A DNA stretch of 62,628 nucleotides, counting the filler, from Stramenopiles sp. TOSAG23-6 (Eukaryota): the NCBI GenBank assembly GCA_900128565.1. It is 10 parts of 10 records of this genome, joined end to end, with 100 filler letters (N's around TTAATTAATTAA, not from the genome) between each part and the next. Parts side by side here need not be neighbours in the genome. Positions count along the whole stretch, not along the records: positions 1 to 11,078 come from LT636283.1; positions 11,179 to 22,198 come from LT636284.1; 8 more parts are not named here. One strand, written 5' to 3'. The notes under the pieces were generated by a model. The model was given only the letters and a program-made list of their open reading frames with translations. It made no database searches and was not told where the DNA came from. Made by a program: the position numbers and the translations under genes. This document shows, piece after piece, positions 1 to 42,960 of this stretch (position 1 is its first letter; each line of letters begins with the position of its first letter).

Positions 1-57
1 TACAAAATTTCATTATGGAAAAAAAACTGAAAAAAAAAATCAATTTTGAAAACGTAC

Positions 58-1353
58 AAGAGGTTGATTTTGAACTGCTTCCCTCATTGATGAATAGTTT
101 TCCCCAACTTTCAAGCAATTATCAAATGGAAGTTTTCCAAAAATAAAGCAATATAAGGTTACTCCTGCAGCCCAAAGGTCAGCTTGGTATGCATCATACA
201 TGTATTTTTTGACAATAAACATGCAAGGTAAAATTTTCAAAAAAAAAAAAACAATTGAAATTGAAAAAATGATAAAAACATACATCAATGAATCTTTACC
301 ATGATCGTGCTTCGGATGCCTATAGATTTCCGGTGCCATAAACGCGGGAGTTCCTATATACCCTGAGCAAGGTAACAATGTCGTATTTCGTGGTAAACGA
401 ATTGCCATACCAAAATCACAGTATACATGTATTTTGAGACAATATTTTAAAGTTTGATTTTTGGATTCATTAGGTACAGAATTTCGTATGAAAAATAAAT
501 AAATTCGAAATTGAAAAAGATACACAGTGACCTCGACTGGATACCATAATATTAGCAGGTTTGATGTCACGATGGACAATGTATTTTAGAAAAATATTTC
601 AAAAAAAAATCGTTAAGTACAAAATTTACTATAAAAAAAAATTCGAATTTGAAAAAAAATATTTCAAAAAAAAATCGTTAGGTACAACATTTACTATTAA
701 AAAAAAAATCGAATTTGAAAAAAAAATAAAACATACATCCCATTATGTTTGAAATATAAAAGGCCACTCAACATGTCACAGAAATAGTCCTTAGCAAGCG
801 CTTCAGGCATTACACTTTGAGTACTTTTACGATAAAAAAAATTCTTTTCAAATTCCAATGTCTGCCCTCCCCCAAAATATTCAAATACCAATAGTAGTAT
901 ATTCGATTTTTGCTGGAAAAACTCATCCTGTCCAATCACTTCGTAGAGTAAGGCACAATTTCGATGGAATATATCTCTTGATATGTCAACTTCATGCTGT
1001 ATCATGTCAAACATTGTAGTCCGTCGTGCTTTGCGTTCATTTCTTTGTTGTTGATAAATATGTATTTTACGCAATTTATTTAAGGTATACTTTTTCACAG
1101 CAAAGCACTTCGGTTTTCCAGAAATTATTCGTTCACAGAGATAAACGTTTCCACAACTACCAGCCCCAAGTTTGCGCAAAACTTTTAAATCATTGAACCA
1201 AGTGTCACCACTTTGTTTTTCAACTTTCAAGTAAGGTGTGAACTTACAATCCCACTCTTCAAATCGAGGAAAACTATCCTCACTATACTTGGTTTCAAGT
1301 ACGTTTTGTCGTACCGGTGGTGGTGGTGGAGGCGACGGCGGTGGCACTTCCAT
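58..1353 (-). CDS. Ser/Thr protein kinase, CaMKK-like; exons 1353-737, 578-524, 426-284, 199-58; 3' end truncated
   Basis: LGAGSCG, FAVKK and GTPAFMAPE motifs; GIVHRDIKPANI, CVYCDFGMA and YDAYQADLWAAG are restored by removing 3 family introns. Confidence 0.9.
200..283 (-). mobile_element. Family intron GT-AT, 84 nt, in frame and stop-free
   Basis: ttgat|GTATGTTTT...AAATACAT|gtatgat gives SLMYDAYQ; branch motif degenerate. Confidence 0.75.
427..523 (-). mobile_element. Family intron GT-AT, 97 nt
   Basis: cactgt|GTATCTTTT...GTACCTAAT...AAATACAT|gtatactgt gives GHCVYCDFG. Confidence 0.85.
579..736 (-). mobile_element. Family intron GT-AT, 158 nt, with internal tandem duplication
   Basis: gggat|GTATG...AAATACAT|tgtccatcgtgac restores GIVHRD. 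Confidence 0.9.
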
Positions 1354-1690
1354 TCTACTCGGAATTGAAGATGAGTTAGTTTACCTTCAAAATCATTGGC
1401 TGGCGAAGGAACCTTAATGAGTAATCTGTTTTAAAACTTCGAAATAAATGGAAAAAAAGAAGAAGATTGATAACTTATATACTTTTGACCAGCCAAAAAT
1501 GACGTCAATCGAAATCGAAATCGGAGATGCCACGTGTTAATTTCAAATTAAAATTTTTTTTATCAATTTTTTGAATCAATCGAAATGAAATCGCGCTCCT
1601 CGGGCAGAGTATCGGTACCATTGTGTAAAACAACAACTGGGATTCTTATGTACCACAATGTATCTTTATAAAAAAGCGAATATGTAGACG

Positions 1691-3786
1691 ATGAGAGTAC
1701 CATCAATTTGTATAAATATTTTTCTGCTAAAGTTGTCTTGCGTACTAGCACAACCGTATCAATCTTGGTAGGTTTCATTTATCACTTTCGACTGATTCTT
1801 TTTTTTGTTGTTTTAACTTCCATTGAAAGTGTATATGTTATAAAGTTACTTTCATCCAAATATCCTCCAATAAGCGTAAATGATACATTTCGGACTAACA
1901 TGAAACATACATACGCAAATATTTTGTAATACGTCGCATGTAAGTTCATCGTTTCTTGAATACATCTAATATATAAAGTTGGCTTTTTTTTATATTTAAG
2001 AAATGAAAAACTAATTGATCTCCGTGTTTGAAAAACTCTCACTTACAGGAAAACTGCTGTCGGAGCATTGACAAATGGTCAGAATTATACCCCACCTCAC
2101 TGTAATAGTGATAACCAACAATCTATATGTTGCGTTTACCAAGCAGACATAGGCTGCTATAAAGTGAAAGGAAACTACGACGGAGCACTTCAACAGGTTT
2201 CTCCTCCAAAAGCGTGCACAATCTCAGATATTATCTATAAAGGTATAGTGGACTGCTGTTATCATGAAGGCATATGTCAACAAAAGAATCCACAAGAATG
2301 CTCAAGAATGGGAGGTATGTGGTGTGGCTATGATACGTGTAATCCAGTTTGTAAAGCTGGTTTCGATGCTGAAGAAAATTGTACAGCTTGTCCTAGCGGA
2401 AAATATTCGTGGATAAATTCACCATGTAATCTATGTGATCGAGGTTACGGTAAAACTATTGAAACACCTGTTGAAACACCAGTTAAAACACTAAACAAAA
2501 TTAAATGCCCCGGATGTGCTATTGGTAAGTACAAATCTGTGAGAGATCAACTTCCGTGTAAACAATGCCCAGTAGGAAAGTATTCAAATACTATGAATGC
2601 TTCCGTATGTAAGAGTTGTGAAACAGGAAAATATTCAAGTAAACAGGGTGCTTCTACGTGTAAAAGTTGTGATGCAGGACGCTATTCAACTGGTACTGGA
2701 TGTACAGAATGTGACGTAGGTTACTACTCCAGTCGGGAATCATCGATGTGTTCTCTATGTGCTAGTGGACAATATATAGATCGTAAAGGTGCCTCCAAAT
2801 GTGAAAAATGCCCCATAGGAAAGTTTCCACACCATACAACATGCTCGGCTTGTCCTGAAGGGAAAAGTGTCATGTTGGATAACAAGCCATACCAACAGCC
2901 CGAGGACTGTTCAATATGTGACGTAGGATATGAACCGGATAAAATATCTAGTTCATGTAGTTTGTGTACTCCAGGAAAAGCTAAAAGTATTCCAGGTAAC
3001 TCTCAATGTAATAAATGTGAAAGTGGGAAATATTCATACAATGACCCTACTAAATGTGACGAATGTGCCACTGGAAAATATTCTACGCCAAATGCAACTG
3101 AATGTAACTTATGTCTTCCAGGGTATAAAAAAACTAAAAGTAATACATTTTGTGAAGCATGTCCAGGTGGAAAGTATTCTCTGGATAATGAATCCTCTGA
3201 ATGTAAAAATTGTACTGAGGGAACATATTCTGCTGATGGTTCTTCTGAGTGTACAACATGCTCTCTTGGAAAATTTGCATTAAATGGATCTGATGAGTGC
3301 ACACTTTGTGACAAAGGCTACAAGTATATATCACCAACGGCAACACCAACTGCAGCACCAACAACTGCAACACCAACTGCAGCGCTAATAACTGCATCAC
3401 CAACGGCAACACCAACAGCCGCACCAACAACTGCATCAGAAACATGTACGTTGTGCGATGCGGGATATTACAAAAATACACAAGATAACAAAATTTGGTG
3501 CTCTCCGTGTCCTAACGGGAAATCCTCAGATGCAGGGGCTCCAGAATGTGGAAACACACAGCAGTTATACTTTCAACACTGCAAAATTCCAATCTTTTTG
3601 TGTCACGCTGTGAGAAAACAAATCAAGGAAACACTTACAAGAATGTGTCAAAACATGTCGATATCATTGAAAACGTGTTCAGTGAATGCAATCATAATTT
3701 TGACTACTACAACTTTAAGTGGGATTATTGGAGTAGGTGTAGTTTATTTCAGTCTAAAAACACTCCACAAAGTTGATTTGAGATAA
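1691..3786 (+). CDS. Cys-rich surface protein (GCC2/GCC3, TNFR/ephrin-receptor-like repeats) with signal peptide and C-terminal TM helix; exons 1691-1767 and 2049-3786
   Basis: Many C-x2-C-P-x-G-K-Y repeats and a Thr/Pro/Ala-rich stretch; a canonical intron joins a hydrophobic leader in frame. Confidence 0.8.
1768..2048 (+). other. Canonical GT-AG first intron, not a family member
   Basis: tg|GTAGGT...ACTAAT...TTACAG|g, phase consistent. Confidence 0.75.
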
Positions 3787-3838
3787 ATTTTATAAATTAT
3801 AACTTGTATCGTTTTGTTGATTTTTGTTATGAATAGAA

Positions 3839-4204
3839 TTAATCTTCTTGTTTTGCTTGGTTAGATTCAGGTTTACTTACAGAAGTGATTTTTGTGACTC
3901 CGTCGTTGTAACATTCACGTATTTCCATTAATGTTGCTGCTGTTAGATTGTGGCACTTGATTTGTATGTAACTCACAATAAGTATTGAAAAAATACCAGC
4001 AAAAATCGCGGCAGTACTACTTGTAATTACACAGTCTCGATCAAAAAAGGACTTGCTATTGCATCTTTCTTTAAGGATTATGTCTCGAACTGTTTCTTCA
4101 GATAAATTACTCAAGAAAGCTTCATCGAAACATTCTTCTGTGGCCTCAATTACAAGAAGTGTAAGACATATAATATTTCGAAGCTGATAACGTTCAAAAC
4201 CCAT
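3839..4204 (-). CDS. Small hypothetical membrane protein
   Basis: 121-aa ATG ORF with hydrophobic leader and one TM segment. Confidence 0.5.
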   Translation of the reverse strand: MGFERYQLRNIICLTLLVIEATEECFDEAFLSNLSEETVRDIILKERCNSKSFFDRDCVITSSTAAIFAGIFSILIVSYIQIKCHNLTAATLMEIRECYNDGVTKITSVSKPESNQAKQED

Positions 4205-4574
4205 TCGTCTTTTCTTTTTCTAATAATACAAGCAGACGGTTTTTGAGTTATTGGTACTGCGAGTCAATCAGAGACTACTTTTACTAGAATATTTATCGTT
4301 CTCGAAAAGATCAGATAATTAGTATACGGAGATGATCGGCACGCACCTTAGCTTTCAAGCATGTGGTTAGTCTCTACCGGTAGGCAATTGATGGTACCGA
4401 TATTCAAAGTGCAAAAAGGGTATGAAAATAGATTACTGTAAAAATTATTTTTTAAACTTCAGGACGACAAGAATTCAATTTAAATTCGAAGAGCGAAAAA
4501 TATAATTAACACGAAATCAGACAAGAAATCTTGAAAAATCATTACTGTTATGTTTATTCAATACTATGTGCATC

Positions 4575-5413
4575 TTATTTGTACTGATTATTCATCATAG
4601 TTGAAGCCGTCACTGGAACTCTCCCCATCTGTGCAGCATCAAATGATGTTTCAAGTTTTTCCTTGGTCTTGTATTGTTTTTTCTTACCTGACCAAGGGAC
4701 GTACTTATGCTTCCACATATGCTTAATTTGTCTCTTCATGGTCAGAAAAAAAAGAGCACAAAAATACATTAGAAGAATAGGCCAAAACACAGGAATATTA
4801 AAAATATTGAAAAACGTCATAAATAACGAGATTAATGTTGCACGCATACATGATGTCCAGAATTTAAATTCCGGAACGCGGCGTTGGAATGGTCTGTACT
4901 CCGAGTTACTACTACCAGGGAGGGTTGCCTCATGAGATTCAGGATCTATTTCAGGCGATAGAAATCCAATGAATAGATTTAACAAATATATTCCTAACCC
5001 ATACGTTATAATATACCATCCTTGTAATAACCAGACTCGTAGCATATAGACAAATAATAAAAAGAAAAAAGAACCCCAACGGGCTTTAGGCCAGACGGTT
5101 GACTTGTCCAGAAAATGCTGCATTTTTCTTTAGTTTACAAAAGATAAACAAACATCAAAAAATGAGTCAATGAAGAGTTCAAAAAAAAGTATAGCTAGAT
5201 TATGATTCAAAACCAAATGTTGATGTAATTGGTGAAAGCCACTTTGATCACTGACAGAGTACTTTTCAGAAACACAAAAAGTGAACACTGACGGGAAACA
5301 AGCGGGTAGAGAGAAAACTAATCAAAAGAGTTACATATAGCTTACCTGGAGTATGCTGCTTTTACGTGATCCATCATTGTTGATTCACTGACATCTGCTT
5401 CCAATGGATCCAT
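4575..5413 (-). CDS. RER1: RER1 Golgi-to-ER retrieval receptor; exons 5413-5346 and 5127-4575
   Basis: YIITYGLGIYLLNLFIGFLSP, EYRPFQRRVPEFKFW, PVFWPILL, MKRQIKHMWKHKY. Confidence 0.95.
5128..5345 (-). other. Canonical GT-AG first intron, not a family member
   Basis: ccag|GTAAG...CTAAAG|aaaaatg, phase consistent. Confidence 0.85.
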
Positions 5414-5775
5414 TCTTTAAAGTAAGGCTGTAAAAAATAATGCTGTAAATAATTAATTTGCACTGATTTCGTCCACCAGATATTTTATACAGTACGCCCG
5501 CGCTTCTTCTTATTCATTTCTATCAAAAATTTCCCCAAAAATTTGGCAAAAATTTGCTCGCGAAAAATCAGAAAATTTCAACAGGTAGTACCGGGTATCG
5601 TTGGTTGTGAAACTGTAAGAACTCACTTGTCTACTACTACGACGACGATGTCATTTTATTTTCTTTTTCATTTATAAAAATCTTGCATCGTAAAGAAGTT
5701 ACGTTGCGTGTTAGCAAACCTTATCAAAACTATGAAAACTATGGAAACTATGAAAACTATGACTAAGTAGCAATT

Positions 5776-8700
5776 ATGAAGGAAAGTGTCATAAAAAAAC
5801 GTCCGTATACAGCTCCTATATTGAACTACTGTAAAAAACCTTACATTCCATTTGCTAGGATTGATTCTTGGAGTTCTTCTCGTGAAGAGCCACCAAAACG
5901 TTCGTATAGATGGCGTCCTAGTCAACATAAAACTACTGATGGAAGCATAGGTTGGGATATCAATTACAAAGGTGGTGGCGCAGTTCAGTCAAATATAGAT
6001 GAACAAAATAGAATGAGACATCAAGGAAAACCAAAAGATTTTATAATTGAATTGAATGTCGAAAATATTAATACTTCCTTAAAGAAAAAGGCGTTCATCA
6101 CTAAAGAAAGAGAATCTATTATGTCTTCAGGAACAGAATGGAATTTCTCATTTGCTACATCAAATAAAGCACACGCTACAACTATAACAGCTATTTCGTG
6201 TTCACCTTTGATTCCCTCCAAAACGTTTCTCGATATGGAAAATAGAAACATGAAAGCATATCAACTTGATATAAATGATACAAATCGTCGCACTTGTGTT
6301 AGTGCTCATGGAAAGTTGCAGCATGATACGCGAAACAATAACTTTGAATATCGTAAAGGATTTGATGCATTTAACAATGATAATGAAAATAAAAGCAATA
6401 AAATTTTTCAGAACTTTCAAGATGAAAGTTCTCATATAATCGGCCAGATCGCAGCCACAGGTGATGCTGATGGTATTATTAAATTATGGAACATTGGTAC
6501 AAATGGCGACAAAGAAGCACTACAGTTGCTTATCGATACAAAGAATAACCAAATAGAAAAGAAAACGACATTGAATTCAAAAATTCATACAAAAATAACT
6601 ACAAAGAAAAAGTCAAGATTTCGTCGCTCATGCTTTTTTGAACTCACAGGGCACAAAAAGTGTATTACATGTCTTGATTTTTCCCCAAATGGTAAATTTT
6701 TAGCATCCGCATCACAGGACAAAACTGTGCGTATTTGGAATATTAAAAATGGTTTATGTTGTGATATTATTGATGGTCATACTTCCTGGGTTACATGAAT
6801 GTTTAATTTTTTTTCAAATTCGAATTTTTTTTTATAGTAAATTTTGTACCTAACGAGTTTTTTTTGAAATATTTTTCCAAAATACATCCGTTTCTTTCTT
6901 TTCAAGTGGCAATAAAATTATCACAAGTTCTTGTGATCGAGGGGTGCGAATCTGGCGAAATGAAAATATCAAATTTCATAATACACTTGAATCAACAACT
7001 CAAAGTACAGAAAAAACACAGAAATTAGAAAAAATAGAAAAATTAGAAAAAATGAATTATAGTACATGGGAGTTACTACTAACAATGTCAGATCGTTCAA
7101 AATCTGTTCGGGAGGGTCATGGTAAGTGTGGTTCGAAATCGGGTCATAAAGGATATATCACATCATGTGCGATTTCTCCAAATATGAAATATGCAGTATC
7201 AGCTTCAAATGATTCAACTCTTAAAATTTGGGACTGTAAAACAGGAAAGTTATATAGAGACTGTATCGGTCACAATCACAGTGTTTCAGATGTGAAGTTT
7301 CATAAATCTTCACTTCACATGTATGTTTTATTTTTTTTTTTAACAAAAAATCGAATTTTTTTTTTCATACGAAATTTTGTACCTAACAGATTTAAGTTTT
7401 TTTTTTTGTGAAATATTTTTCCAAAATACATATTGTCCGCTTCTTGGGATAAAACTTTGCGTTTGTGGACTTTAGAAGGAAATTGTGGTACAACTTATGT
7501 CGGCCATTCAGATATTGTATATGCGTGTTGTTTTTCTCAAGATGGGGAATATGCCTTTTCAGTATCTCGTGATAAAACGGTTCGAATGTGGGAAGTAGGA
7601 ATGTATGTTTTATTTTTTTTTTTTACAAAAAAATCGATTTTTGTTTTCGTACGAAATTTTGTACCTAACAAATTTAAGTTTTTTTTTGAAATATTTTTTC
7701 ATAATACATGTTTGGTCGTTGCTTGAATGTGTATTCTATAAATGGACATAGTCATTATATCACTAGTATAGCCTGCAGTGCAGATAGTACAATGCTCTTG
7801 ACAGGATCTAAAGACATGACAGTAAAAGCGTGGAGAATAGGAACAGAAGGTGAAAGTATCTGCACAAATTCACCCGCACAAAACTTAAAAAATATGAAAA
7901 ATACAAATAGTAAAAAGTTTAAAAAATATCAAAGAAAGACAAAAAAATGGTTGAAATATAATGTCATTGTGGAATTAAAAGTACCAAAAGGTGGACTTTT
8001 ACTAGGTCATTTACATGGTAAAGCATCACAAAAATTGAAGAATATGTTGAATTCGTTTTTAGAATTTTCTGAAAACTCTGGCAAAGTAGCTTTCCCTACT
8101 TTACAGAATATAGAAAAGACAATTCTTGAAACAAAAAAAAGTATTCCATCAAATGATTCTTCTGATCCTTTTATAAATGATTTTGATTCTGATATGGTAG
8201 TAAACATTGCAAATGAAAGTAATGAAATGAAAAAGCTGGAAAAAGGCATGATGACAATTGATCAATTCTGTGCTAGTGGAATTCGAAATGCAACGGAGGA
8301 AAATTTTTTTAGACTTTTATCTGGAGAACAAAAATATAAAGACATATATACAGTAAGATTAAGAGACTGGAACACAATTGAAAGTAATAGTTCTGAGAGA
8401 GAATATGTATTATATCATGCGGAATCTGGAGATGAAATTTGGTTTAATCCAGTTTTAATTGAAGTTTTAACACAAAGACCAGAGGAGCTATTATCACATC
8501 CCTGGGAAAAGTTGCAAGATCAAGAAGATAACAATTTAGGTATGGGAGATTTTATCCCTGGTCAATATTATTATTGGAATCGAGCGACAAGTATAACCAC
8601 CAAAGAAAGACCAGAAGCTTTGTTTAAATCAACAGATATAAAAACAAAATTAGAGATAAAAAGAGCATGTCATGAAGCAAGTAGTGCTGCTTTAGAATCT

Positions 8701-9534
8701 GTTGGTATGATCAAAACATTTTGTATGGAGACAGAAGAAATTGTGCAGCTTGCAATAGAAGAAGAGAAAAGGAGAAAAATGGCTATGCAAAATGCTGCTG
8801 CTATTTCTTTGGAAGCAGAAAAATTTGCAACAAAGGTTGCTGACAGTTGTCAGGAAACCATTACCAAGAAAGCCATCTTCGATGCAGCATCCATTTCTTT
8901 TCTTGCATCATCAGTTGCACAATGTTTTTCATTTTGCAGTACCGTACAAAAAGAAGGTCGTGTAGAAGTTCACTACTTGAAGGAAGATAATTGGTACCCG
9001 GGTACAGTAGAAAGTATAGATATTGATGAATTTACTGAAGAATTATTGCTTGAAATTCATTTTGATGATGGTGATATAGAAAAAGAGGTACCAATTAATA
9101 GAATTCGCGGAATCTCAAAAGATAAAGAAACAACTATTGAAAAAAAATTATCTGAGATAATAAACACTGCTATTGTTGCGGCCAAAGCGGCAAGCGAAGT
9201 TACAAAAGAAGTTTATAATATTACAGATACAATACTGAACCCTAACATTACAGATACAAATAAAATACTGAAGATTCCCATCATCGAGAAAACGCTAACA
9301 AAAAACAAAAAAACAAAACAACAAAAAAAAGTAAAGAAAACAAAAATGAAAAAAGCAGAAAATACAAATGTATTGAAATCAAAAGGACCAACAGAGAAGG
9401 GCATAAAAATAATAAAAAACAAAGCAAAATCCAAAAAAAAGAAAAAAAACATGAAAAAGTCGACAACGATAAAATCAAAGACTCAAAAGAAAAAGAAGAA
9501 AAAACAAAATGTAAAAAAACAAGCAAAACGATAA
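5776..9534 (+). CDS. WD40-repeat protein with WW-like and Tudor-like segments and a Lys-rich tail; 4 or more exons
   Basis: Repeated GH...ASASxDxTxRIW units, continuous after removing introns 6797-6887, 7321-7431 and 7603-7709. Confidence 0.85.
6797..6887 (+). mobile_element. Family intron, variant GA-AT (equivalently AT-AC if shifted by 2)
   Basis: ttacat|GAATGTTT...AAATACAT|ccgtt gives GHTSWVTSVSF. Confidence 0.85.
7321..7431 (+). mobile_element. Family intron GT-AT, 111 nt
   Basis: cacat|GTATG...AAATACAT|attgtcc gives HILSASWDK. Confidence 0.9.
7603..7709 (+). mobile_element. Family intron GT-AT, 107 nt
   Basis: ggaat|GTATG...AATACAT|gtttggt gives WEVGMFGRCL. Confidence 0.88.
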
Positions 9535-9761
9535 TATTTTTCGTATGAAGTTTTGTACCTAACAAATTCTAGTTTTTTTTTTGAAATATAAAAAAAACAA
9601 GTAAACCGATAATTTATTCCATAATCTAGGGGTAATCTTAGGGGTTGTTTTAAATAAATCACTGTAACCATTGGCGACATGTATTCATTAATAAGACGTG
9701 TACATTTCATCGGGTAAAATCTTCGAACGTTGTGTAAAAATCAAGTTATTCCGAAGATCCT

Positions 9762-10106
9762 CTATTTAGTTTTCGAAAAATTTCGAGCAACATCAACAAC
9801 CTTTGTTCTGAATAGCATAACGACCATGAAAACGACATAAGCCTTAACCACAACATCTGCTGAGAAATACTGAGAATTATTCCTTATGAATCGTTTGCCA
9901 GAGGTACTGAATCTAGCCAAGACCAACATAAAGAAAAGAAAAAAAGGTACTTGAAGAAAAATTTGCTCAGGATTTTTGAAACAGCCTAGTACAGATTCCT
10001 TCCAGGTCTTTAGCTTCGAGACAGAAGCACTTGATTTAGGTGACTTCTTACGGCCAGGACTCTTTGATCTCGTGCGCTTAGGAGTCCTTGATCTGGTAGT
10101 TGCCAT
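9762..10106 (-). CDS. Small membrane protein with RS/SP-rich basic N-terminus
   Basis: 114-aa ORF with two hydrophobic segments. Confidence 0.6.
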   Translation of the reverse strand: MATTRSRTPKRTRSKSPGRKKSPKSSASVSKLKTWKESVLGCFKNPEQIFLQVPFFLFFMLVLARFSTSGKRFIRNNSQYFSADVVVKAYVVFMVVMLFRTKVVDVARNFSKTK

Positions 10107-10540
10107 TTTGTCAATTATTCACTGTATTGTGTTGGAGATACTCGTAAAAGTGTTCACGATGAGTTTTAATGAGAGTGAGTTGAGGATGGAGAGTAACTAC
10201 AAAGTCAGTATAAGGGAGTAACTAAAACAAAACAGAGTAATACTGTACACTCTTGTTTCTTTGGTACTATGAGGTATATTACTTACGTGGGTAATTCCAA
10301 TGTAAATATATAGAGGACAATAATATGATATTATCTTTTCGCTTTACTCGTGAGGCACACGCGGATCGAACGCGGATCGAAGAACTCAAAAAAAAACTTT
10401 CAAATTTTTGAATTTTTGAAAAATTGGCGGGAAAAGATTTGATTAGGGTTTACCCAAAAATTTAAATACTACTAAAAGTCTAAAACAAAATAATTGCGAC
10501 TAAAAATAATAAATAAATACCAATGATGAAATTATTTTCA

Positions 10541-11025
10541 TTATTCATTACTTGTACTATAATCAGCCCATTTTGTTTCACCAGTACTATGATCATGCAA
10601 ATAAGCATATCCATCCTCCGTGATATATTCAGTCCAGTGACTATTCTTTTTCGTACGAAATTCTGTACCTAACGATTTTTTTGATTTATTACTGATGTGT
10701 TTCTCATTTTTTTCAGTCTGTTGTATCGTATTTTCCTGTGTTTTTAACAAGTTTTCATCTATTTTGTCACAAATAATTGATTTCATTTCATATGGATCGT
10801 GACTAGAACTTATAAATTGTTCCTTTTGTCTCAGCGAAAAATGTTCAGGATTTTTTGTTGTGCGACGTGAACTGAAATTATTTTTGATTTTTTGTGATTT
10901 TTGTGTGTTTCGTGAATTTTTGACGGTGTGGCTGCTATTACTGGAACTATTCGACATACCATTTTCCTTGTTTCTAAATTTGTTTTTATTTTTCGTACAT
11001 TTTTGATGATTTGTTATAGGTTTAA
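10541..11025 (-). CDS. Last exon of a WW-domain protein (partial)
   Basis: WTEYITEDGYAYLHDHSTGETKW; the frame is open up to a family acceptor at 11026. Confidence 0.75.
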
Positions 11026-11078
11026 ATGTATTTTGGAAAAATATTTCAAAAAAAAAAACTTAAATTCGTTAGGTACAA

Positions 11079-11178
11079 NNNNNNNNNNNNNNNNNNNNNN
11101 NNNNNNNNNNNNNNNNNNNNNNTTAATTAATTAANNNNNNNNNNNNNNNNNNNNNNNNNNNNNNNNNNNNNNNNNNNN
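11079..11178. other. Artificial contig spacer; others at 22199, 33223, 44232, 55233, 56714, 58194, 59673 and 61152
   Basis: Identical 100-nt N/TTAATTAATTAA/N blocks; contigs decrease in length. Confidence 0.98.
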
Positions 11179-11224
11179 ATTTTGTACCTAACAAATTTCG
11201 AATTTAATTTTTTTTACAATACAT

Positions 11225-11603
11225 GTCTTCAATCGGGGCTGAAATTTTTAAAAATCGTCTCCTGCAGTTTATTTACAAATTGCTTGGAGGTTTTAACTCC
11301 CCATCAAGCTTAGTGTCAATAGCAACTGCTTCCAGTGTTTTAATCATGGTATTGGAAATTACCCGATCTCCCCATTCTTCCAGGAGGGCATTTCGTCGGA
11401 TATTTAGGAAGTTTCTATTTACAATGGCTACTAGTGGGTGTATTGTTGGTTCTGTTGGGGTAGGCATTAAATTTTGGATGGAGTCGTCAGAAGAGCAGCG
11501 TACACTTTTTCGAAAAGCTTTTTCCTTTTTAAAGCGACCGGGAACTTTACCATCTATTGCTGTGATTGCTTTGATGATAAAATTTACACGTCGCAAGTTT
11601 TGA
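11225..11603 (+). CDS. Last exon of a hypothetical membrane protein (partial)
   Basis: Open frame following family acceptor ACAATACAT at 11224. Confidence 0.6.
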
Positions 11604-11740
11604 TGAATTTAATGTATTACTTGACAATAATACACTATGAATTATAATATAAATCCAGGAAATGTTAGGTTTTGCAAATTTTTTTCTTTTTATTACATTC
11701 TTTTATAAATCTTTTGAAATCAAGTGTAAAAAATATCAAG

Positions 11741-12253
11741 TTACAAAGCCTTCGTGTGCCTTCCAGTAGCAATAAGTCTATCACCCACTTTCAGTTTCAC
11801 TTCCGTAAAACCTAACGTTTTACCAGACTTTAGAACACGACCTTCTATTTTGATTGTTTCTCCAGTTTTTGCAGGCGAGCAAAACGACGTGTTCAACTCA
11901 ACACTAACACCTGGTTTCAATGGGTTGACACTCAAGAGTGCTAGAGTACCAACTATATCAATAAGAGTTGAAGTAGCTCCACCGTGAAGGGTCCCAAAAG
12001 AGTTTAAGAGTTTTTCTGTTACTTGAATGCTACATTCAACCTTGTTTCTTTCAATTCGGTCGATTTGAAGCCCAGTGAAGACACTATCAAACCGACCAGG
12101 AAATGAAAAAAACTTTCCAAGAAGAGCGTTAGCTCCTTTCAAAGCAGCTTTTTCAATGAAAGATGTTGGTTTTTTTTGTGAGCTCATATACCTTAGACAA
12201 CCATTCGTTGAGTTCGAAACTATTCTTGGCAACATGGGGTATCGAGACACCAT
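11741..12253 (-). CDS. ACOT13: Hotdog-fold acyl-CoA thioesterase 13 (THEM2/PaaI)
   Basis: NSFGTLHGG, GVSVELN and GRHTK motifs; transit-peptide-like N-terminus. Confidence 0.9.
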   Translation of the reverse strand: MVSRYPMLPRIVSNSTNGCLRYMSSQKKPTSFIEKAALKGANALLGKFFSFPGRFDSVFTGLQIDRIERNKVECSIQVTEKLLNSFGTLHGGATSTLIDIVGTLALLSVNPLKPGVSVELNTSFCSPAKTGETIKIEGRVLKSGKTLGFTEVKLKVGDRLIATGRHTKAL

Positions 12254-12591
12254 ATTTATCTAATGTGATCCAAAATATTTAGCAAGACCAAGACGGTGAA
12301 TCTTTAAGATTTTTCGATGACAATTAGTCATTGAATTTTGGTGGCCACTTTGACAAGTCAGTTTGTTTGCGTGAGTTTGCGTTGGAATTTCGCGACCCAG
12401 GATTTCGATTTGATTTCGTGGGTGGAATTTCGGAATTTATTTTTTTACTTTTTCGTTCTTTTTTCGTATCTTCTATTTGAAGTATATCTATATCTTGTCA
12501 ACTTTCAATGCTACAAAGAAGTCTGTATCTGTGGATCGCTGACCAGTGATTTATTTCCAGTAATTTACTATATCAATGAGAAGAAAACCAA

Positions 12592-14823
12592 ATGGGGAAG
12601 CATCCNATTGATAATATATCTCTTCCAAAGTTAAAACACCTTCATAGAAAGCTTACTTCCACTAATAAAAATTGTTTGGATTTTGTGTCAGACCTTTTAA
12701 ACAATAGGAGTGAAACCAATATTCCATGGAGTCAACTACGCGAAGCACTACGACGTATTTACAAGCTTTCCACTTACGAGTGTGCATCAATGGCATCATT
12801 ATTTGATGTACGTGGAAACAAGTCTGTAGACAAAACTGAATTTTTGGCATTCGTGGAATGTAAAGAGAATAAACTAATAACATTTGCTAATTTGATTCAT
12901 AACAGAAGACGGAAAATGTTTCATCAAAATCGACAAAANCAAGATCAAATGTCCACCAAGAAAAATAACAAACTTCAACTTGGAGNTTCTTATACTAGCT
13001 TATCTATATCTTCCTCAGATGAAGGTGAACCAGAAGAATATTTGAATNATCGAAAATACCATGGGCATCGCTCTCTCACAGCAGCGACCGAGCATTGGCT
13101 GCGATCTCACACACTAGCACGTAAATCAGTCCTCTGTGAGGATACAAAAAATTCAGCTGTTCGACAAAGATTGTCGCANCAAAATCAAGATTCGCTCAAT
13201 ACATTTGATTCTGAAGTATCAGTGAATAATTCTACTCGAAATATTCCAAAACAATTGACGTCGATTCAGACCAAAGAGACCAAAGAATATANAAAACAAA
13301 ACAAAAGGTATCGAATCAAACATTTTACCAACCGACATCGCCGAGTAAGTTTATCTCAACTTCAAAATTTACATCGTAAGTTAAATATGGAAATCCCGTA
13401 TACACAAACAAGGGCAATGCTTGAGAAGAGAAACAAAAGAACAAAAAGTTCACAATTTTCTCAAATTTTGATATGGGTTGGAAGTGATCAAAATGGTCAT
13501 TTGCTATGGACTAAATTTCGAGAGTCAATGCGTCGAATTTATAAACTGACACCAATAGAATGTGATCATTTAGCTTTATTATTCGATCCAGATTCGTCGG
13601 GTTTTATAATTTGCTCAGAAATTATAGCATTTGTCGAATGTAGTTATTNTAATTTAGCAGAGTTTAATGCTCGCATTCATAAGAAACGCAAAATAGTGAG
13701 TATGCAAATGCCAAAAAAAGAAAGGATGTTAACATATTCTAGTAATAGAAATATAAATCCAGAGGAATTATTTCGAAACAATAGTGAAATTACTACTAAT
13801 ACATTCAACAGTGACATATACTTATCTGAAACTCCCAAGAGCAATACGTTGAGTGAGTTGGCACAGCCGAAGTCTGTTACCCATGGTCAAAGCAAACATA
13901 TAGATTCCACTACTAATACCAATGTAAATAAATGTCATAAAGATTTCACAGAGAGTGTATTAAAACCATCTACTGAAGAATGGATTGAAAAACAGAATAA
14001 TTTTCGTGTGAACGAAAATAAAAGGATAGAAAAAGCTTCTGGAATTAGACCTGGATACACCCACCCTCTCCATAAGTTGTCCTTGGAAACAGTCATCAGA
14101 CTTCACAACAAATTGAATAGGCTAGTATTGTGCAACACTAGCGATAAATATGAAAAACATCATATTAATACATCTTTTGCATTCAGCGTATTTCTCACGG
14201 CATTGAATAAAAAATCTTATTCCAGAAACTATTGTATGTCATGGGCAGTATTTCGACAAAAAATCCGAGAAAATTACAATCTGAATTCAATAGAATGNGA
14301 TCATTTAGCTTTATTATTNGGTGTACATGAGATGAGCAAAATTAACATGAATGANTTTTTAGATTTTGTGAAGTGTAAAGAGAATGAAATTATTACATTT
14401 TGTAANATTCTATTTTATCGAAAAAACAACCAATCAAAAGATAACAAACAATTTGAGAAAAATCGATCAAATTTTGTTCACCGTAAAAGTACAAATGCAT
14501 CNACANTAGAAAAGTCCCCAGATATCAAAATTCTATTAGAAAATAAGGCAAAGTCAAAATTTCAGGAATTTTCAGATATTGAAATTCTACTAGAAAATAA
14601 GGCAAAGTTGAAATTCCAGGAATTAGATGTCTTTAATCGAGGAATACTAGATTCGAAACAATATCAAANGTTTGTTGAATGGCTTTGGAGTGAAGTTGAA
14701 GCCAATAGTGGCAGACAAAATTCATATGACACAGACACAGTTACATCCCAATGTTGTAAGTCACAGAGNTATTCGATTTTCAAGAGATGGTTTAATAATT
14801 ATGTATCAATGAAGAATCATTGA
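12592..14823 (+). CDS. EF-hand-like protein with three internal repeats of about 90 aa
   Basis: LHRKL...W..FRE...Y.L...ECDHLALLFD..G...EF..FV.C.E occurs 3 times. Confidence 0.7.
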   Translation: MGKHXIDNISLPKLKHLHRKLTSTNKNCLDFVSDLLNNRSETNIPWSQLREALRRIYKLSTYECASMASLFDVRGNKSVDKTEFLAFVECKENKLITFANLIHNRRRKMFHQNRQXQDQMSTKKNNKLQLGXSYTSLSISSSDEGEPEEYLNXRKYHGHRSLTAATEHWLRSHTLARKSVLCEDTKNSAVRQRLSXQNQDSLNTFDSEVSVNNSTRNIPKQLTSIQTKETKEYXKQNKRYRIKHFTNRHRRVSLSQLQNLHRKLNMEIPYTQTRAMLEKRNKRTKSSQFSQILIWVGSDQNGHLLWTKFRESMRRIYKLTPIECDHLALLFDPDSSGFIICSEIIAFVECSYXNLAEFNARIHKKRKIVSMQMPKKERMLTYSSNRNINPEELFRNNSEITTNTFNSDIYLSETPKSNTLSELAQPKSVTHGQSKHIDSTTNTNVNKCHKDFTESVLKPSTEEWIEKQNNFRVNENKRIEKASGIRPGYTHPLHKLSLETVIRLHNKLNRLVLCNTSDKYEKHHINTSFAFSVFLTALNKKSYSRNYCMSWAVFRQKIRENYNLNSIEXDHLALLXGVHEMSKINMNXFLDFVKCKENEIITFCXILFYRKNNQSKDNKQFEKNRSNFVHRKSTNAXTXEKSPDIKILLENKAKSKFQEFSDIEILLENKAKLKFQELDVFNRGILDSKQYQXFVEWLWSEVEANSGRQNSYDTDTVTSQCCKSQXYSIFKRWFNNYVSMKNH

Positions 14824-15051
14824 AAATTACCCGTCATTTCACCATGTGGTACAGTAATTTATAAATGAATAAATAAAGCAATCTTTCATAAGAAAAAATA
14901 AAATCGATTCTTGATGTAGATTTTTGTTTTGTATATCAAAGTTTATTTTTAAAATTAAGATATTTATTTCAGTTTTTTCACTGATCATTTTTTTTCGTAC
15001 GAAATTTTATACCTAATAATTTTTTTTAATTTTTTCACTAATCATTGCTTA

Positions 15052-16125
15052 CTACTTTTCATCGATATCATACAAATGTGGAGACACATACTTATTCATA
15101 GTAAACATTGTTACTTTTTTTCTTCCCATAAGTTTTGAAAACTTCTTATCACAGATAATTTGTCGTTTATCATCAGGATTTTGTAAGTTATGCTCACGAA
15201 TATACACCCAGAGCAATTTCACAACCTGTCCGCGAGATGATTGTGGTTTACCAATTATTGCTTGAAGGTCCGTCGAACATTTCCACTCTTTATGAAAGCC
15301 TGTGTTTTTCTTCTCACCTTCTGCAGAAACCTTTCGCTTTTTCTTTTTCACCTTTTTCTTTTTTTGGGTTTTTCTTGGTGGCTCATCACTCTCGTCACCA
15401 CTCTCATCACTATTGCTTTCTTCATCTTCACTCGAAATTTCTTTCTTCACTACTTTCTTTTTCTTTGTCTTTTTTGTATTCGTCTTTTTTTTTGGTTTCT
15501 TCGAAGATGGNGATTTATTACCCACTACTTCATCGGAATTATATAAATGTGAAGTCACNTACTTATTCATAGAAAACATTGTTACTTTTTTTCTGCCACC
15601 CATGATTTTTTCAAAGTTTGCGTCACAGATAATTTGTCGTTTATCCTTCGGATTCTGTAAGTTATGCTCACGAATATACACCCAAAGCAATTTCACACAC
15701 TGTCCGCGAGATGATTTTGGTGTACCAATAACCTTTTGAAGAGCATTTGAACAGTTTAGTTCTTTATGAAATCCTGTGTTTTTCTTCTCACCTTCTGCTT
15801 TTTTCTTTCTTTTNTTCTTCTTTTTTGGAGCTTCGTCTTCACTTTCACTAGAACTCGATTCAGATCGAGATGTTTTCTTTCGCTTCTTTGGAGTGGCCTT
15901 TTTTTTGTTAGCTTTGTCTAAAAAAGAAAGTATCTCCTTTTTAATCACGTCCTTCTGCGATTTCAAGCAAATCCCGTTGAACTCAGCTTCAATTGTCTTA
16001 CGCACAATTCTAATGGATAATTCTTCTAAAGGTAGCCTACTTAAAATACTTNCAATAGATTTTTTCAGCTGACCCTTGGTAGGCATCTCCATGTTCTCTT
16101 CATTTTCAACTGATTTCTTCGCCAT
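15052..16125 (-). CDS. DEK-C plus two SWIB/MDM2 domains (UAF30/Spp27-like)
   Basis: Two copies of SRGQ.VKLLWVYIREHNLQNP.DKRQIICD; N-terminal DEK_C-like helices. Confidence 0.9.
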   Translation of the reverse strand: MAKKSVENEENMEMPTKGQLKKSIXSILSRLPLEELSIRIVRKTIEAEFNGICLKSQKDVIKKEILSFLDKANKKKATPKKRKKTSRSESSSSESEDEAPKKKXKRKKKAEGEKKNTGFHKELNCSNALQKVIGTPKSSRGQCVKLLWVYIREHNLQNPKDKRQIICDANFEKIMGGRKKVTMFSMNKXVTSHLYNSDEVVGNKXPSSKKPKKKTNTKKTKKKKVVKKEISSEDEESNSDESGDESDEPPRKTQKKKKVKKKKRKVSAEGEKKNTGFHKEWKCSTDLQAIIGKPQSSRGQVVKLLWVYIREHNLQNPDDKRQIICDKKFSKLMGRKKVTMFTMNKYVSPHLYDIDEK

Positions 16126-16727
16126 GCTTCTCACAATGTTTCGCTGGATATACGTACTTGAACTCGATATTGTTCTGCGTGTACAACACACGCGCAAAAA
16201 TGGATCTGATCTAAGATCGAAATGACCGTTACCCGGTTCCCCATAAATAATTTTTTACTAGATAAAGAATACAACTATACCGGTAGAATCTATATACAAA
16301 ATATTATCTAACGAATTCANAANANAAGAGTATAATACTATTAATACACATTATCATGTATCATTAAAAATCATGAACAACATTTTTTTAAAGCGCGAGC
16401 CTTTTTATTTTATTTCGTGTGATGTTATTAATTTTGGTACAAAAAGTGTACCTAAGCAATTCATTAACGAGTAGTATATATCCAGACTTTTGCCTTATGA
16501 GACTTTTCTGATTACGACAGTTCGATCCTTTCGGTGAAATTTTTATAATAAAAACACAGTTTTACACAGACATACATACATTATAGAAACAATTGTAGAA
16601 AAACAATGGTAATATAACAGAGTACGCGGTGCCCGGTAACAAACAGTATTATATATCGAAAAACTTCAGCGTTGGAAGAGCTGAGACTATAATTAAACCA
16701 AAGTGCANAGCAATATCCTGACACTGC

Positions 16728-17572
16728 TTAGCGATTAGCTTTTGCAACACGCTCGATTTCATCCTTCTTCTTAATAGAGTAAGCATTGGATGAACCTTTT
16801 GAAGCGTTGATGATTTCGTCAGCGAGGCACTCTGCAACGGTTTTTACATTGCGGAAAGTAGCCTCACGTGCGCCAGTAGCAATTAAGAAAACTGCCTGGC
16901 AAACACGACGAAATGGTGAGACATCGACAGCTTGGCGGCGAACGATACCAGCAGCACCAATACGGGTAGAATCCTCACGTGGTCCAGCGTTGATGATAGC
17001 ATCAACGAGAACTTGGATTGGATTACGGTCAGTGAGCAAGAAAATAATCTCGAACGCATGGCGAACGATGTTAACTGCGAGTTGCTTTTTACCAGCATTG
17101 CGACCGTGAAACATAAGAGCATTAGCAAGGCGCTCAACAATTGGGCACTGAGCTTTGCGGAAACGTTTCACTTGGTAGCGACCACCAGTGTGTGGGAGAT
17201 AAGTTGCGAACTTTGGCTTTACAGCAATGTAGTCCTCTAGCGAGATGTCGTTAATTTCGACGTCATCGAAAGTCCTGTGTTGNGCGAAGTTGAGANAAAA
17301 GTTTAGATGATTGAGTAAATAAGTCTATATGAATATACGTTATATATNTGGGGAAATTGTATACAATGGAAATGTAAACCAAAATACGCTGAAGAGTACT
17401 TCCGCCGCTGGTAGGTGAAACTACCAGAAAGACAGAGAGCGCATTTGGACTATTGAGCACTGCGTATCATAAGCACNCATAATAGTCTCGTTTGCAATAC
17501 GAAAAGTTATGTTTNAGTCATCAAGATTACTTACCATTTGTTGAAAAGCTTGATATCAGCTCCGTCGGCCAT
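16728..17572 (-). CDS. RPS5: 40S ribosomal protein S5 (uS7); exons 17572-17535 and 17274-16728
   Basis: [36 protein letters not shown]; spliced N-terminus IKLFNKWTFDDV. Confidence 0.98.
17275..17534 (-). other. Canonical GT-AG first intron, not a family member
   Basis: aaatg|GTAAGT...ACACAG|gact. Confidence 0.92.
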
Positions 17573-17794
17573 ATTGAAAGGTTTGTTTTGTGGTAATTAG
17601 AAAGGTCATCCCGAGCAAGAAGCGGACACACAACAAGAAGAGCCGACCTTGCTGGAAATCGCAAAAGAAAGAACTGACTTGTTTATTGGAACAAACCTGT
17701 TTCAATTTTTAATGGAACAAACATGTTTTTATACGACTCACACAATTTTATAATAATTATTAATTTTACAAAAAAACATCGAATTCAATTCACA

Positions 17795-18847
17795 CTATGA
17801 ATGATACTTGTATCCGGTATCCGTATCTACCATTTCTGTCATTCTATTTCTTGAATTTCTTGAATTTCGTGTTCTTTTCGTTTTTTTTGTACCTCTAGCA
17901 ACACATCGAGCAACGCAGACTAAAACCAATGCAAGAATCGCAACAACACACTCAAAAATACCAAGTAAAATAAAAACAAATGCAGATTTCTTAAAAAGTT
18001 TCTGGAAGGCATCACTACAAGTTACTTCATCTGTCATAACAGAACCTAATTTAAATGGACCACTTAAGATTTCACCTTTGTTGGCTCCTTCTAGAAGAAA
18101 CTTTTTTCCTTCACCTGGNAGAGGACTGTATTGTGAAAAAATACAAAAAAAAATCGTTAGGTACGAAATTTTCTATGAAAAAAAACTAAGTTTGAAATTC
18201 ATGATGAAAATCTACTAATTGCATGTAAACACATTGGTCATCATATACGGATGTGCTCTATCATATCCACAACAATTAAAGAATTTTTGAGTCTTCATCC
18301 AACTACCATATGTAAATGGATCTTGACATTCTTCGGCAACACAGCCTTTTGGACCAGGTAGTCCNAAATGTAGGTTAATATATTCAATGCTTTTCCTGCT
18401 CAAGGACAATGAAGTTTCGGATGTCTTTTCTTTGCCACTAATTGGTGTATTCAAATCAATTTCATTAGAATAGTTGAGAGAATATACACCGCAAGTAATA
18501 TGGACTATGGAAAACGCAGTAACAAATATGATAAATATATACATTGGCCATCTTGCAGCATTGTGATCCATATCACTTCCGTCAGAGTTTCGCCGGATAG
18601 CCTGTGAGCGCATCTGACAACTACCAACAATTCCACAAAGAGATAAAACAGCCATTGCTAAGGCAATCGAGCCACATATTATCAGAATGTAATCAGGAAG
18701 ACCCAACAAATCTACGTGGTTAAACAAAATGTGACCAGCGAGACTGAGTGCAATTAGACTCAACACAAGCATTATTGACGTTAGAGTAATCAAAAGAAAA
18801 CCTAGACGCCTACCGCAGTTCGTACAACACATTTCAATATTACACAT
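17795..18847 (-). CDS. Tetraspanin; 2 exons
   Basis: Four TM segments and a CCG motif in the large loop. Confidence 0.85.
18126..18215 (-). mobile_element. Family intron with canonical GT-AG ends
   Basis: aatta|GTAGATTTTCAT...GTACCTAAC...CAATACAG|tcct. Confidence 0.85.
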
Positions 18848-19198
18848 GTTTCAATATATTGAATAGATACCAGTGGCAGAAGGAGTATTACTTAATTTCT
18901 CCCAACAGATAAATTTATTTTCGAAATAAAGAGTTCAAGTTCAACACATCAATCAAATCTAACCTGTACTAAGGAATTTAAAATCACGGATTTGACATGG
19001 TACCCGGTACCATATGTGAAATTTCAAATTTTTGGTGAATAAATTTCAGCGGATTTTCGATTAAATTTTGCCGGCGATTTGCGCGAGTCGGTCAGGTAGT
19101 TCCTGAGGACCTGAGACTTCCTGAAACACGAGTCAGGTAGTTCCTGAGAGTTCCTGAAACATTTGAAAGACTTGGCTAGTTCCTTTCAAAAATACAGA

Positions 19199-20995: not shown

Positions 20996-21273
20996 TATGT
21001 CTGTATTATAGAATTATAGAATCGATATCATGTGAGAAGGCAAGGATAAATTTATTTCTAAGATAGTTACCGCATAAAAAAAATAAAACTATTGATGATT
21101 AAAAAAAAAATGGTGTTTACGTAAACTTGTTTCAGTAAAATTTCATCTTTTACTGGGTAGTAAGTACCCTTGGTCAAATGAATTACGTTTAACAATTATG
21201 TTAAAAATATAATGTATTAAAGAAACCAATTTATTTTTTCCTTATTCAATATAATGCAATACTATACCACAAA

Positions 21274-25322: not shown

Positions 25323-25390
25323 ATATCATTAAATATTAATAATATATTTGTTTTAGAAAAAGATCAATACTGTATTTTTTTTATTCGTGC

Positions 25391-30111: not shown

Positions 30112-30159
<48 letters not shown>

Positions 30160-30164
30160 AACAA

Positions 30165-30204
<40 letters not shown>

Positions 30205-42834: not shown

Positions 42835-42960
42835 TTAAATTAAAGTTATGAAAATAAATTAATGAACTTATCATTAGAAAAATTATATAGTATTCTCCGT
42901 TTATTGAATAATCACTCCAATACATATTCAAAATTTTTATATTTTCAAAGTTAATTCACA

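Follow-up and report, generated by a model that had tools for sequence, protein, structure and literature searches.

The stretch of DNA analysed here (the window, 62,628 nucleotides (nt) with filler included) comes from the assembly GCA_900128565.1 of Stramenopiles sp. TOSAG23-6, and it consists of ten unrelated contigs of an AT-rich marine eukaryote with a GC content of about 32%. Its genes are eukaryotic and mostly take the form of long open reading frames (ORFs), among which Pfam matches identify Rer1, ribosomal protein S5, kinase, WD40, AAA ATPase and MFS transporter genes, as well as LRR, ankyrin, tyrosinase and Helitron RepHel genes. Reading frames in this DNA are interrupted by a repeat family of 90-166 nt with the form GTAYGTTTT ... 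TACCTAAC ... CAMAATACAT, at least 29 copies of which occur in 61.8 kb, in unrelated genes (kinase, WD40, AAA, MFS, LRR and other ORFs) on the ten contigs. Reading frame, homology and RNA agree with a sequence-only reading of the same DNA, which had held that two intron classes coexist in it, namely ordinary GT-AG introns and a family excised at ends other than AG.

The family is marked by a putative branch motif, TACCTAAY, which occurs 47 times in the window against an expectation of 3.30 +/- 1.88 (100 shuffles), and a profile built from 11 copies gives 68 matches at E<1, of which 46 are at E<1e-3 on the model strand. The curated set comprises 29 copies with both ends, and 24 complete copies were aligned end to end. 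The pairwise identity among the aligned copies has a median of 72% (range 59-92%), and conservation reaches 80-100% in three blocks: a 5' block of 9 nt (GTAYGTTTT), a block of about 22 nt that closes with TACCTAAC, and a 3' block of 10 nt (C-A-M-A-A-T-A-C-A-T). The motif TACCTAAC or a one-base variant of it is present in all 24 aligned copies and is followed by T runs. In the 29 curated copies 31-53 nt separate the branch-like A from the 3' end, which bears out the earlier description of a near-invariant TACCTAAY some 30-50 nt from the end; the distance for copy 2 is 34, measured from its second motif TACTTAAC, a value of 99 being a pattern miss of that motif. Two subfamilies can be distinguished, GTATG/CCAAAATACAT and GTACG/TCACAATACAT, and internal tandem duplications with two branch motifs are found in 579-736, 44887-45052 and 45196-45345.

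The ends of the 29 curated copies are GT-AT in 25, GT-AG in three and GA-AT in one. The donor has G at +1 in all 29 and T at +2 in 28, and the GTAYG form ascribed to it in the sequence-only reading holds, with T or C at +4 in 27 and G at +5 in 23; two donors (427-523 and 47532-47660) do read GTATCTTTT, as was also claimed. At the 3' end, A at -2 and C or T at -3 are found in all 29 copies, and the last base is T in 26 and G in three. The last base, which had been called degenerate, does vary between T and G, but the A-ending copy at 45441-45567 is uncertain, because an in-frame AG upstream could serve instead of its ACAA.

The copies are given below with their strand and the evidence for each cut. 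A slash in a protein junction marks the splice point, and the alternative AT-AC register mentioned in some lines is weighed further on.

427-523, minus: GTATCTTTT..ACAT in the kinase gene; junction H-C/V-Y-C-D-F-G; 5' flank GT, which makes the AT-AC register impossible
579-736, minus: kinase gene, internal tandem duplication with two branch motifs; junction H-N-G-I/V-H-R-D-I-K-P
6797-6887, plus: GAATG..ACAT in the WD40 gene; excision confirmed by RNA
7321-7431, plus: GT..AT in the WD40 gene; in frame, 465 nt upstream and 291 nt downstream
7603-7709, plus: GT..AT in the WD40 gene; in frame, 189 nt upstream and 1821 nt downstream
18126-18215, minus: GTAGAT..ACAG, a GT-AG variant; in frame, 633 nt upstream and 327 nt downstream
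25697-25790, minus: GT..AT, last intron of the MFS transporter gene; the consensus cut gives a 15-codon last exon, then TGA
26185-26286, minus: MFS gene, shifted ends (GTGTTTATG..ACATAT or 3 nt shorter); boundary uncertain; the sole cuts that join ORFs of 1110 and 603 nt
30922-31019, plus: GT..AT in the AAA ATPase gene; junction P-G-P-D/E-R-S-I-L
31449-31539, plus: GTTCG..ACAT in the AAA gene; junction Q-W-D/D-V-G-G, gapless against three homologues
31724-31813, plus: GT..AT in the AAA gene; junction N-A-T-F/L-S-L-S-G, gapless; flank TT, which makes the AT-AC register impossible
31936-32030, plus: GT..AT in the AAA gene; junction L-F-L-D-E-L/E-A-L-V-G (Walker B), gapless; flank TT
32147-32242, plus: GT..AT in the AAA gene; junction G-L-L-I/V-G-A-T-N-R-P, gapless
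34905-35026, plus: probable diverged copy, GTACGTTTT..TTCAT, before an ORF with a tyrosinase domain; in frame, 894 nt upstream and 1725 nt downstream, every third cut fitting
44595-44708, minus: GT..AT; in frame
44887-45052, minus: GTTGGT..ACAT, branch motif duplicated; in frame, 162 upstream and 186 downstream
45196-45345, minus: GT..GATAT, core duplicated; phase fits a 95-nt upstream exon, boundary chosen by frame
45441-45567, minus: GTACAT..ACAA, 3' site uncertain; the ACAA cut is in frame, and an AG 30 nt upstream likewise gives an open frame
47532-47660, plus: GTATCTTTT..ACAG, a GT-AG variant; in frame, 351 upstream and 273 downstream
47878-47990, plus: GT..AT; in frame
48373-48506, plus: GT..AT; in frame, 450 upstream and 564 downstream
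50328-50423, minus: GT..AT between two LRR ORFs; in frame, 1104 upstream and 1206 downstream
54104-54196, minus: GT..AACAT; in frame, 243 upstream and 2004 downstream
54306-54396, minus: GT..ATATAT; best phases agree
54531-54645, minus: GTGCG..ATCGCAT; its 5' flank recurs as a 7-nt direct repeat; in frame with a shift ambiguity of 7
54788-54905, minus: GT..AT; in frame
55094-55209, minus: GTACAG..ACAG (GT-AG) at a contig end; ends set by consensus
56034-56134, minus: GTACAT..AATAT; in frame, 192 upstream and 102 downstream, boundary chosen by frame
58574-58682, minus (60053-60161 on a duplicate contig): GTACG..TTCAT; 3' end inferred from neighbouring cuts
58835-58940, minus (60314-60419 on a duplicate contig): GT..AT; in frame, 585 upstream and 177 downstream
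62205-62301, minus: GTACAT..ACAT with branch motif TGCCTAAC; in frame, 303 upstream and 639 downstream
62509-62600, minus: GT..AT near a contig end; full profile match, E 2e-14
22299-22387, minus: 5' part of a copy cut by a contig end (profile 1-95)
11026-11078, minus: 3' part (..ACAT) of a copy cut by a contig end (profile 52-98)
10638-10684, plus: antisense fragment of the family core (profile 27-78), inside the minus-strand ORF 10541-11059 (WW-domain-like), which is open throughout

The frame test used a cut that was fixed by the family consensus and not by the frame, and the phase agreement of the longest upstream and downstream ORFs was checked across it. The test took in 26 copies and was informative for 20, of which 18 are in phase (chance 1/3; p = 2.3e-7); both misses involve short exons, one of 55 nt between two family introns of the kinase gene and the other a last exon of 48 nt ending in TGA. 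An enumeration of cuts from ORFs alone was rejected as non-discriminating, because the T-rich intron tails lack stop codons, and the consensus-cut test was used instead. Excision of two copies restores the HRD and DFG motifs of the kinase, and four of the five GT..AT junctions of the AAA gene are gapless against P0123, P0125 and P0129 (a diatom, an archaeal CDC48 and a metagenomic homologue), across motifs that include Walker B and VGATNRP. For the remaining junction (30922-31019) the alignment opens a gap of 29-30 columns in the homologues directly after it, and the stretch H-I-P-V-E-E downstream of it resembles, by eye, G-M-P-V-E-E of P0125. RNA contigs from seawater metatranscriptomes, mapped on positions 1-11078, provide direct evidence of one junction: record 19 of the polyA RNA set (X3) covers 6655-6791 and 6883-6945 consecutively, which skips 91 nt with a 5-nt ambiguity (TACAT), fits the excision of 6797-6887 and leaves no GT-AG option. 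The approximately 32 full-length copies are all sense to the ORF that they interrupt, and none is antisense or intergenic. By frame, homology and RNA the copies are introns, and it is shown that they belong to one family, lie in sense orientation only, are excised in exact frame at the consensus ends and in one case are joined in RNA.

Several features of the family sequence lie beside this evidence. The conserved block 5' of the branch motif holds a 12-nt palindrome, TTTCGTACGAAA (for example at 25740-25760, minus strand), which causes weak antisense self-matches of the profile and might serve a transposase or a splicing factor as a binding site. The antisense fragment at 10638-10684, with its branch motif reversed, is translated as part of the WW-domain-like protein and looks like an exonised antisense insertion. 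In the RNA runs X1 and X2, which hold unspliced, DNA-like contigs and are for that reason uninformative on expression, the summed contig depth is 500-3000 on family sequence and 1-5 on unique exons (371-740, 6661-7770 and 10361-11078); the high depth could reflect DNA carry-over, pre-mRNA or stable excised introns from many loci.

Four GT-AG introns that are unrelated to the family coexist with it.

5128-5345, minus: RER1 gene, GTAAGC..AG; a polyA contig (X3 record 18) joins 5127 to 5346
17275-17534, minus: RPS5, GTAAGT..CACAG; homology basis
1768-2048, plus: Cys-rich (Ephrin_rec_like) gene, GTAGGT..TTACAG; reading frame only
10122-10286, minus: intron in a 5' untranslated region; RNA joint 10121->10287

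The RER1 intron and the untranslated-region intron are thus confirmed by RNA, and the ordinary GTARG..AG introns that the sequence-only reading had placed in RER1, RPS5 and the Cys-rich gene are upheld by RNA, by homology and by the reading frame only, respectively. The spliced RER1 model is in frame and matches Rer1 in Pfam at 3.6e-66, its intron reading CT..AC on the plus strand, while the spliced RPS5 model has 193 amino acids (aa) and is gapless against five homologues over the junction K-W/T-F-D-D. Splicing of the Cys-rich gene, which is assigned to Ephrin_rec_like by Pfam, links a signal-peptide-like first exon in frame, and the sole contigs there (from X1 and X2) continue unspliced into the intron. 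The 3' end of the 10122-10286 intron, CACAATACAG, is the 3' ten-mer of the family with G in place of T as its final base, and the profile scan of the window gave no match of this intron to the family. ACAG closes three of the four ordinary introns, and the ACAT of the family is therefore the host 3' motif in all but its last base.

The sequence-only reading had also suggested that 3' sites are defined by the distance from the branch point, and this suggestion is weakened by the range of that distance and by the sites that are passed over, since YAT occurs upstream of the 3' end in 24 of the 29 copies and AG, at least 8 nt past the branch, in seven. Neither a fixed branch distance nor the first AG or YAT sets the 3' site. 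The constant features are A at -2, the pyrimidine at -3 and the wider ten-mer.

The signals of the family resemble those of U2-type introns in the GTAYGT donor with its G at +5, in the CTAAC core of a branch motif at 31-53 nt from the 3' end, and in the T tract, while the AG that ends canonical U2-type introns is found in three of the 29 copies and AT in 26. To judge from these motifs, the family is most likely spliced by the major (U2-type) spliceosome with T or G as the last base. A scan of the window with Rfam at gathering thresholds gave no matches and no small nuclear RNA (snRNA), and Pfam showed no splicing-factor gene in the window, the sequence-only reading having proposed an altered Prp8, U2AF35 or Slu7, or variant snRNPs, as possible mechanisms.

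The AT-ending elements are probably transposon-derived spliceosomal introns, or introners, of which the major spliceosome would be the most likely means of removal; we infer the identity of the spliceosome, the picking of the 3' site and the movement of the element. The intron phases are about evenly distributed (10 / 10 / 7 by hand tally) and the flanks are non-random, with AT at exon positions -2 and -1 in 22 of 29 copies (p 1e-16), C at -3 in 12 of 28, and G at +1 of the second exon in 13 of 29, so that the flanks together with the GTA..TAC ends form a palindrome, C-AT-(GTA..TAC)-AT-G. Such a pattern could result from a small element with inverted repeats that enters CATG-like sites, duplicates 2 bp (AT) on insertion and is spliced from its own GT to the end of the second AT. 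Each copy carries a strong donor (GTAYGTTTT), a strong, yeast-like branch site with a CTAAC core (TACCTAAC) and, after it, a T-rich tract. The element's 3' edge, ..ATACAT, would fall at a CAT/G-like target, and excision from GT to the final T would consequently restore the original coding sequence. A U2-type spliceosome would then use an ACA-N 3' site, in which A at -2 and a pyrimidine at -3 are required and the last base is T or G, while the old, unrelated introns of the same genome keep GTARGT..(A)CAG. An introner origin would in this way explain the source of the odd 3' end. Such a geometry is set out by Gozashti et al. 2022 (PMC9860276), in the portion of the text used here, for introners whose 5' site is their own and whose 3' site comes from the duplication, with the difference that the co-opted end in the present family is AT. 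A target-site duplication of fixed length was rejected as a candidate, the boundary repeats ranging from 0 to 7 nt, with the 7-nt direct repeat of the flank at 54531-54645.

A number of points weigh against this interpretation. RNA bridging is seen for one of the five complete family introns in 1-11078, with no bridging contig for 427-523, 579-736, 7321-7431 or 7603-7709 among the 32 of 2363 pieces listed, four joints falling outside that listing; the bridging contig is metatranscriptomic with a depth of 2.8 and could in principle derive from an element-free allele, and the copy that it bridges (6797-6887) reads GA, not GT, in the assembly. The U2-type assignment is drawn from motif resemblance. 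The T run at +6 to +9 (26-28 of 29 copies) and the strong conservation of the branch and 3' motifs are features of U12-type introns more than of U2-type ones. We know of no citable documented precedent for the pairing of G(+1) with U(-1) at the catalytic step. Seven of the 29 copies have a 5' flank other than AT though the 3' end is still AT, so that the target-site duplication reading is not clean and the step of a 2-bp AT duplication is for this reason a proposed one. An autonomous partner element was not found, and no full family copy was found outside the window in scans of JGI metagenome contigs (with a 19-nt core) and IMG/VR (with a 17-nt degenerate core): at all 18 loci recovered, three from JGI and 15 from IMG/VR, the family profile matches the queried core only, and there is no viral link.

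The alternatives differ in the splice register and in the machinery that they assume. Complementary DNA alone cannot separate GT..AT from AT..AC or TG..CA, AT being the usual end of the exon and also the end of the intron, and most copies might accordingly be AT-AC introns (ATGTAYG..ATAC) shifted 2 nt to the left, with GT..AT as an artefact of the 2-nt end repeat. AT-AC is an established terminal pair, its register is allowed in 22 of the 29 copies, and the RNA-confirmed copy 6797-6887, which reads GA..AT in one register, reads AT..AC in the other; yet the AT flank that it needs is absent in the remaining seven copies, which are in frame at GT..AT and include two AAA-gene introns with gapless homology, and GT is present in 28 of 29 copies in the one register against AT in 22 of 29 in the other. 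Three copies (18126-18215, 47532-47660 and 55094-55209) are moreover plain GT-AG introns in the GT register, and ATGTAYGT is, to our knowledge, unlike any known AT-AC donor. The register favoured by these terminal bases is GT..A[T/G], and a general shift to AT-AC is improbable. A different possibility, which we consider unlikely, is that the family is served by a separate, transformed minor (U12-like) or variant small nuclear ribonucleoprotein system that co-evolved with an intron burst as in Physarum, while the ordinary introns pass through the major spliceosome. The existence of two distinct signal sets in one genome speaks for such a system, as do a long conserved donor (+1 to +9), a long conserved branch motif and a flexible last base, all of which recall U12-type introns; expansion with motif change has a precedent in Physarum, and the GTATCTTT reading of two of the 29 donors is the '+6T' U12-like form used there (10.1101/2020.10.12.336362, in part). 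The U12-derived route considered in the sequence-only reading nevertheless fits poorly, given that RTATCCTT occurs in none of the 29 copies, that the U2-type hallmark of G at +5 occurs in 23, that the branch motif is TACCTAAC and not the TTCCTT[G/A]AC of U12-type introns and stands 31-53 nt ahead of the 3' end, where the same part of that source reports 10-12 nt for Physarum, and that the 61.8 kb contain no canonical pair of U12 donor and branch (TCCTTRAC occurs three times, never paired with a donor). The Rfam search of the window detected no minor snRNA.

Excision without a spliceosome, whether by end pairing of the kind proposed for euglenids and Amoebophrya or by removal at the DNA level, is highly improbable. 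The copies end in short inverted repeats (GTAT..ATAC), and their boundaries are overlapped by direct repeats of 1-7 nt, an arrangement that resembles the inverted and direct repeats of Amoebophrya introners as far as the consulted part of PMC7789003 describes them, but RNAalifold gave no consensus pairs, and none joining the ends, among 24 copies, and there are no compensatory end changes between the GTATG/CCAAAATACAT and GTACG/TCACAATACAT subfamilies, covariation of end pairing between them having been rejected on inspection of the alignment. The boundaries of the copies are in addition fixed, where those of such introns vary, their canonical donor and branch motif are under selection, and the same runs contain copies within contigs of unspliced RNA or of a DNA-like kind. 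The movement of the elements, as distinct from their splicing, might alternatively be ascribed to non-autonomous Helitrons inserted between A and T, in which case the T at exon position -1 would be the first base of the element and the last T of the intron would belong to the host. This account concerns mobility only and has little probability. The flanks have A at -2 in 22 of 29 copies and T at -1 in 24, the last base is T in 26, and the window contains a 1909-aa ORF with Helitron_like_N and PIF1 domains (RepHel; 37105-42834, plus strand). Helitron ends carry the asymmetric motifs TC..CTRR, whereas the termini of the family are TG..CA-like and palindromic, no 3' hairpin is predicted for them, and C at -3 and G at +1 are enriched symmetrically, in the manner of an element with terminal inverted repeats. 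A profile scan found no family-like termini around the RepHel ORF in its contig. Helitron-derived introners have been reported (PMC12130899, in the part consulted). The RepHel ORF is itself uninterrupted and strongly positive in GC skew, and it differs from the surrounding host genes in holding no family intron.

The consequences for public annotation can be seen in the AAA ATPase gene, where the window encodes the EukProt protein P0122 (label GSMAST32.ASY1.ANO1.2481.1) exactly, in eight identical blocks over 30400-32615. Its label hints at a marine stramenopile, and is a hint of lineage only. P0122 is wrong at all five family introns of the gene, where it reads into or through the intron or deletes conserved residues: 36 nt are read into the intron at 31449, 17 nt are read past the donor at 31724, 32147-32242 is read straight through, and at 30922 a longer GT..AG intron removes 29 residues including the HIPVEE stretch. 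Gene callers that are bound to GT-AG fail on these introns, and many errors of this sort may accordingly be present in proteomes and phylogenomic matrices in which the lineage is used. Searches of main texts on uncultured marine stramenopile genomes (PMC5778133, PMC12614181 and 10.64898/2026.04.17.719054) and of the introner surveys (PMC9860276 and PMC12130899) turned up no introns of this kind, though supplements may hold more.

It is quite possible, though less assured than the introner reading itself, that a marine stramenopile-like lineage runs its major spliceosome with a re-specified 3' rule (Y-A-K, with CAT as good as CAG), and that this has let an ACAT-ended mobile element spread through coding sequence to a density of about one copy every 1-2 kb. 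The terminal G of the intron is among the most conserved signals in eukaryotes. If the proposal were correct, this would be a free-living protist with mostly GT-AT introns whose public proteomes are systematically corrupted. Since a canonical donor and branch combined with a final T isolate the last base, the family would offer a clean system for studying how the 3' site is read, both in the second catalytic step and by U2AF-type factors, and would add a case in which a mobile element, and not the host, sets the splice-site rule.

The contigs and the spacers between them are arranged in the window as follows.

1-11078, 11179-22198, 22299-33222, 33323-44231 and 44332-55232: the five contigs of about 11 kb
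Remaining five contigs: about 1.38 kb each, two of them identical
11079-11178, 22199-22298, 33223-33322, 44232-44331, 55233-55332, 56714-56813, 58194-58293, 59673-59772 and 61152-61251: 100-nt spacers

Each spacer has the make-up N44-TTAATTAATTAA-N44, the 12-nt string in the middle giving stops in all frames. The contigs at 58294-59672 and 59773-61151 look like duplicates, with the same two family copies at an offset of 1479 nt, and single Ns are dispersed over 12.6-18.4 kb and 46-48 kb. Short internal telomere-like runs of TTAGGG/CCCTAA at about 33700-33750 and 44545-44560 adjoin degenerate family fragments. A 631-aa ORF at 22316-24211 (minus strand) has a weak match to the T-antigen origin-binding domain (PF02217, E 8e-6) and is followed by the family intron that the contig end cuts.

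Among known systems, which are compared here from parts of the cited sources, Amoebophrya (PMC7789003) is likewise a marine protist; its introns are repeated, with inverted repeats at their ends and direct repeats of 3-5 nt over the boundaries, and the authors of that study proposed a distinct splicing mechanism for them. Its introns differ in having no consensus terminal dinucleotides and an end-joining hairpin, while in the present family the ends are fixed (GT..AT), the branch motif is conserved and no hairpin is predicted; the GC content of nuclear cox genes in Amoebophrya exceeds 50%, against about 32% in the window. Physarum polycephalum (10.1101/2020.10.12.336362) shares a second, numerous intron class with extended motifs, non-canonical terminal bases and some GTATCTTT donors, but the donors described there are RTATC[CT]TT with a branch motif TTTGA at 10-12 nt from the 3' end, in place of GTAYGTTTT and an TACCTAAC that lies 31-53 nt upstream of it.

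Fritillaria borealis (PMC13326754) makes similar mass use of ends other than GT/AG, and, in the portion of that paper drawn on, a conserved U2-type spliceosome removes such introns with divergent U2AF paralogues recognising the 3' ends, so that the suggestion of an altered U2AF in the sequence-only reading is a reasonable one, unproven here. Fewer than 10% of the introns are GT/AG there and the 5' ends are also non-canonical, whereas the host here is a protist, the donor is canonical and the departure is at the last base only. The introns of Fritillaria have been linked to an introner bloom in the discussion of another paper.

There is also a close likeness to the introners of Micromonas, Aureococcus, Chrysochromulina and others (PMC9860276), which are also multi-copy families of introns of about 100 nt in unrelated genes of aquatic protists, with short terminal inverted repeats, flank repeats, a 5' site borne by the element and a 3' site at the edge between element and target (type C). 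The present family differs from them in its AT 3' end (25 of 29 copies), in place of AG, and in that its copies are old, to judge from their median identity. The follow-up curation of introners in 2025 started, according to the part of PMC12130899 consulted, from annotated introns and accepted only AG and AC 3' sites, so that a family of this kind would tend to be missed. The window thus holds what is probably a GT-AT introner family alongside a few old GT-AG introns.

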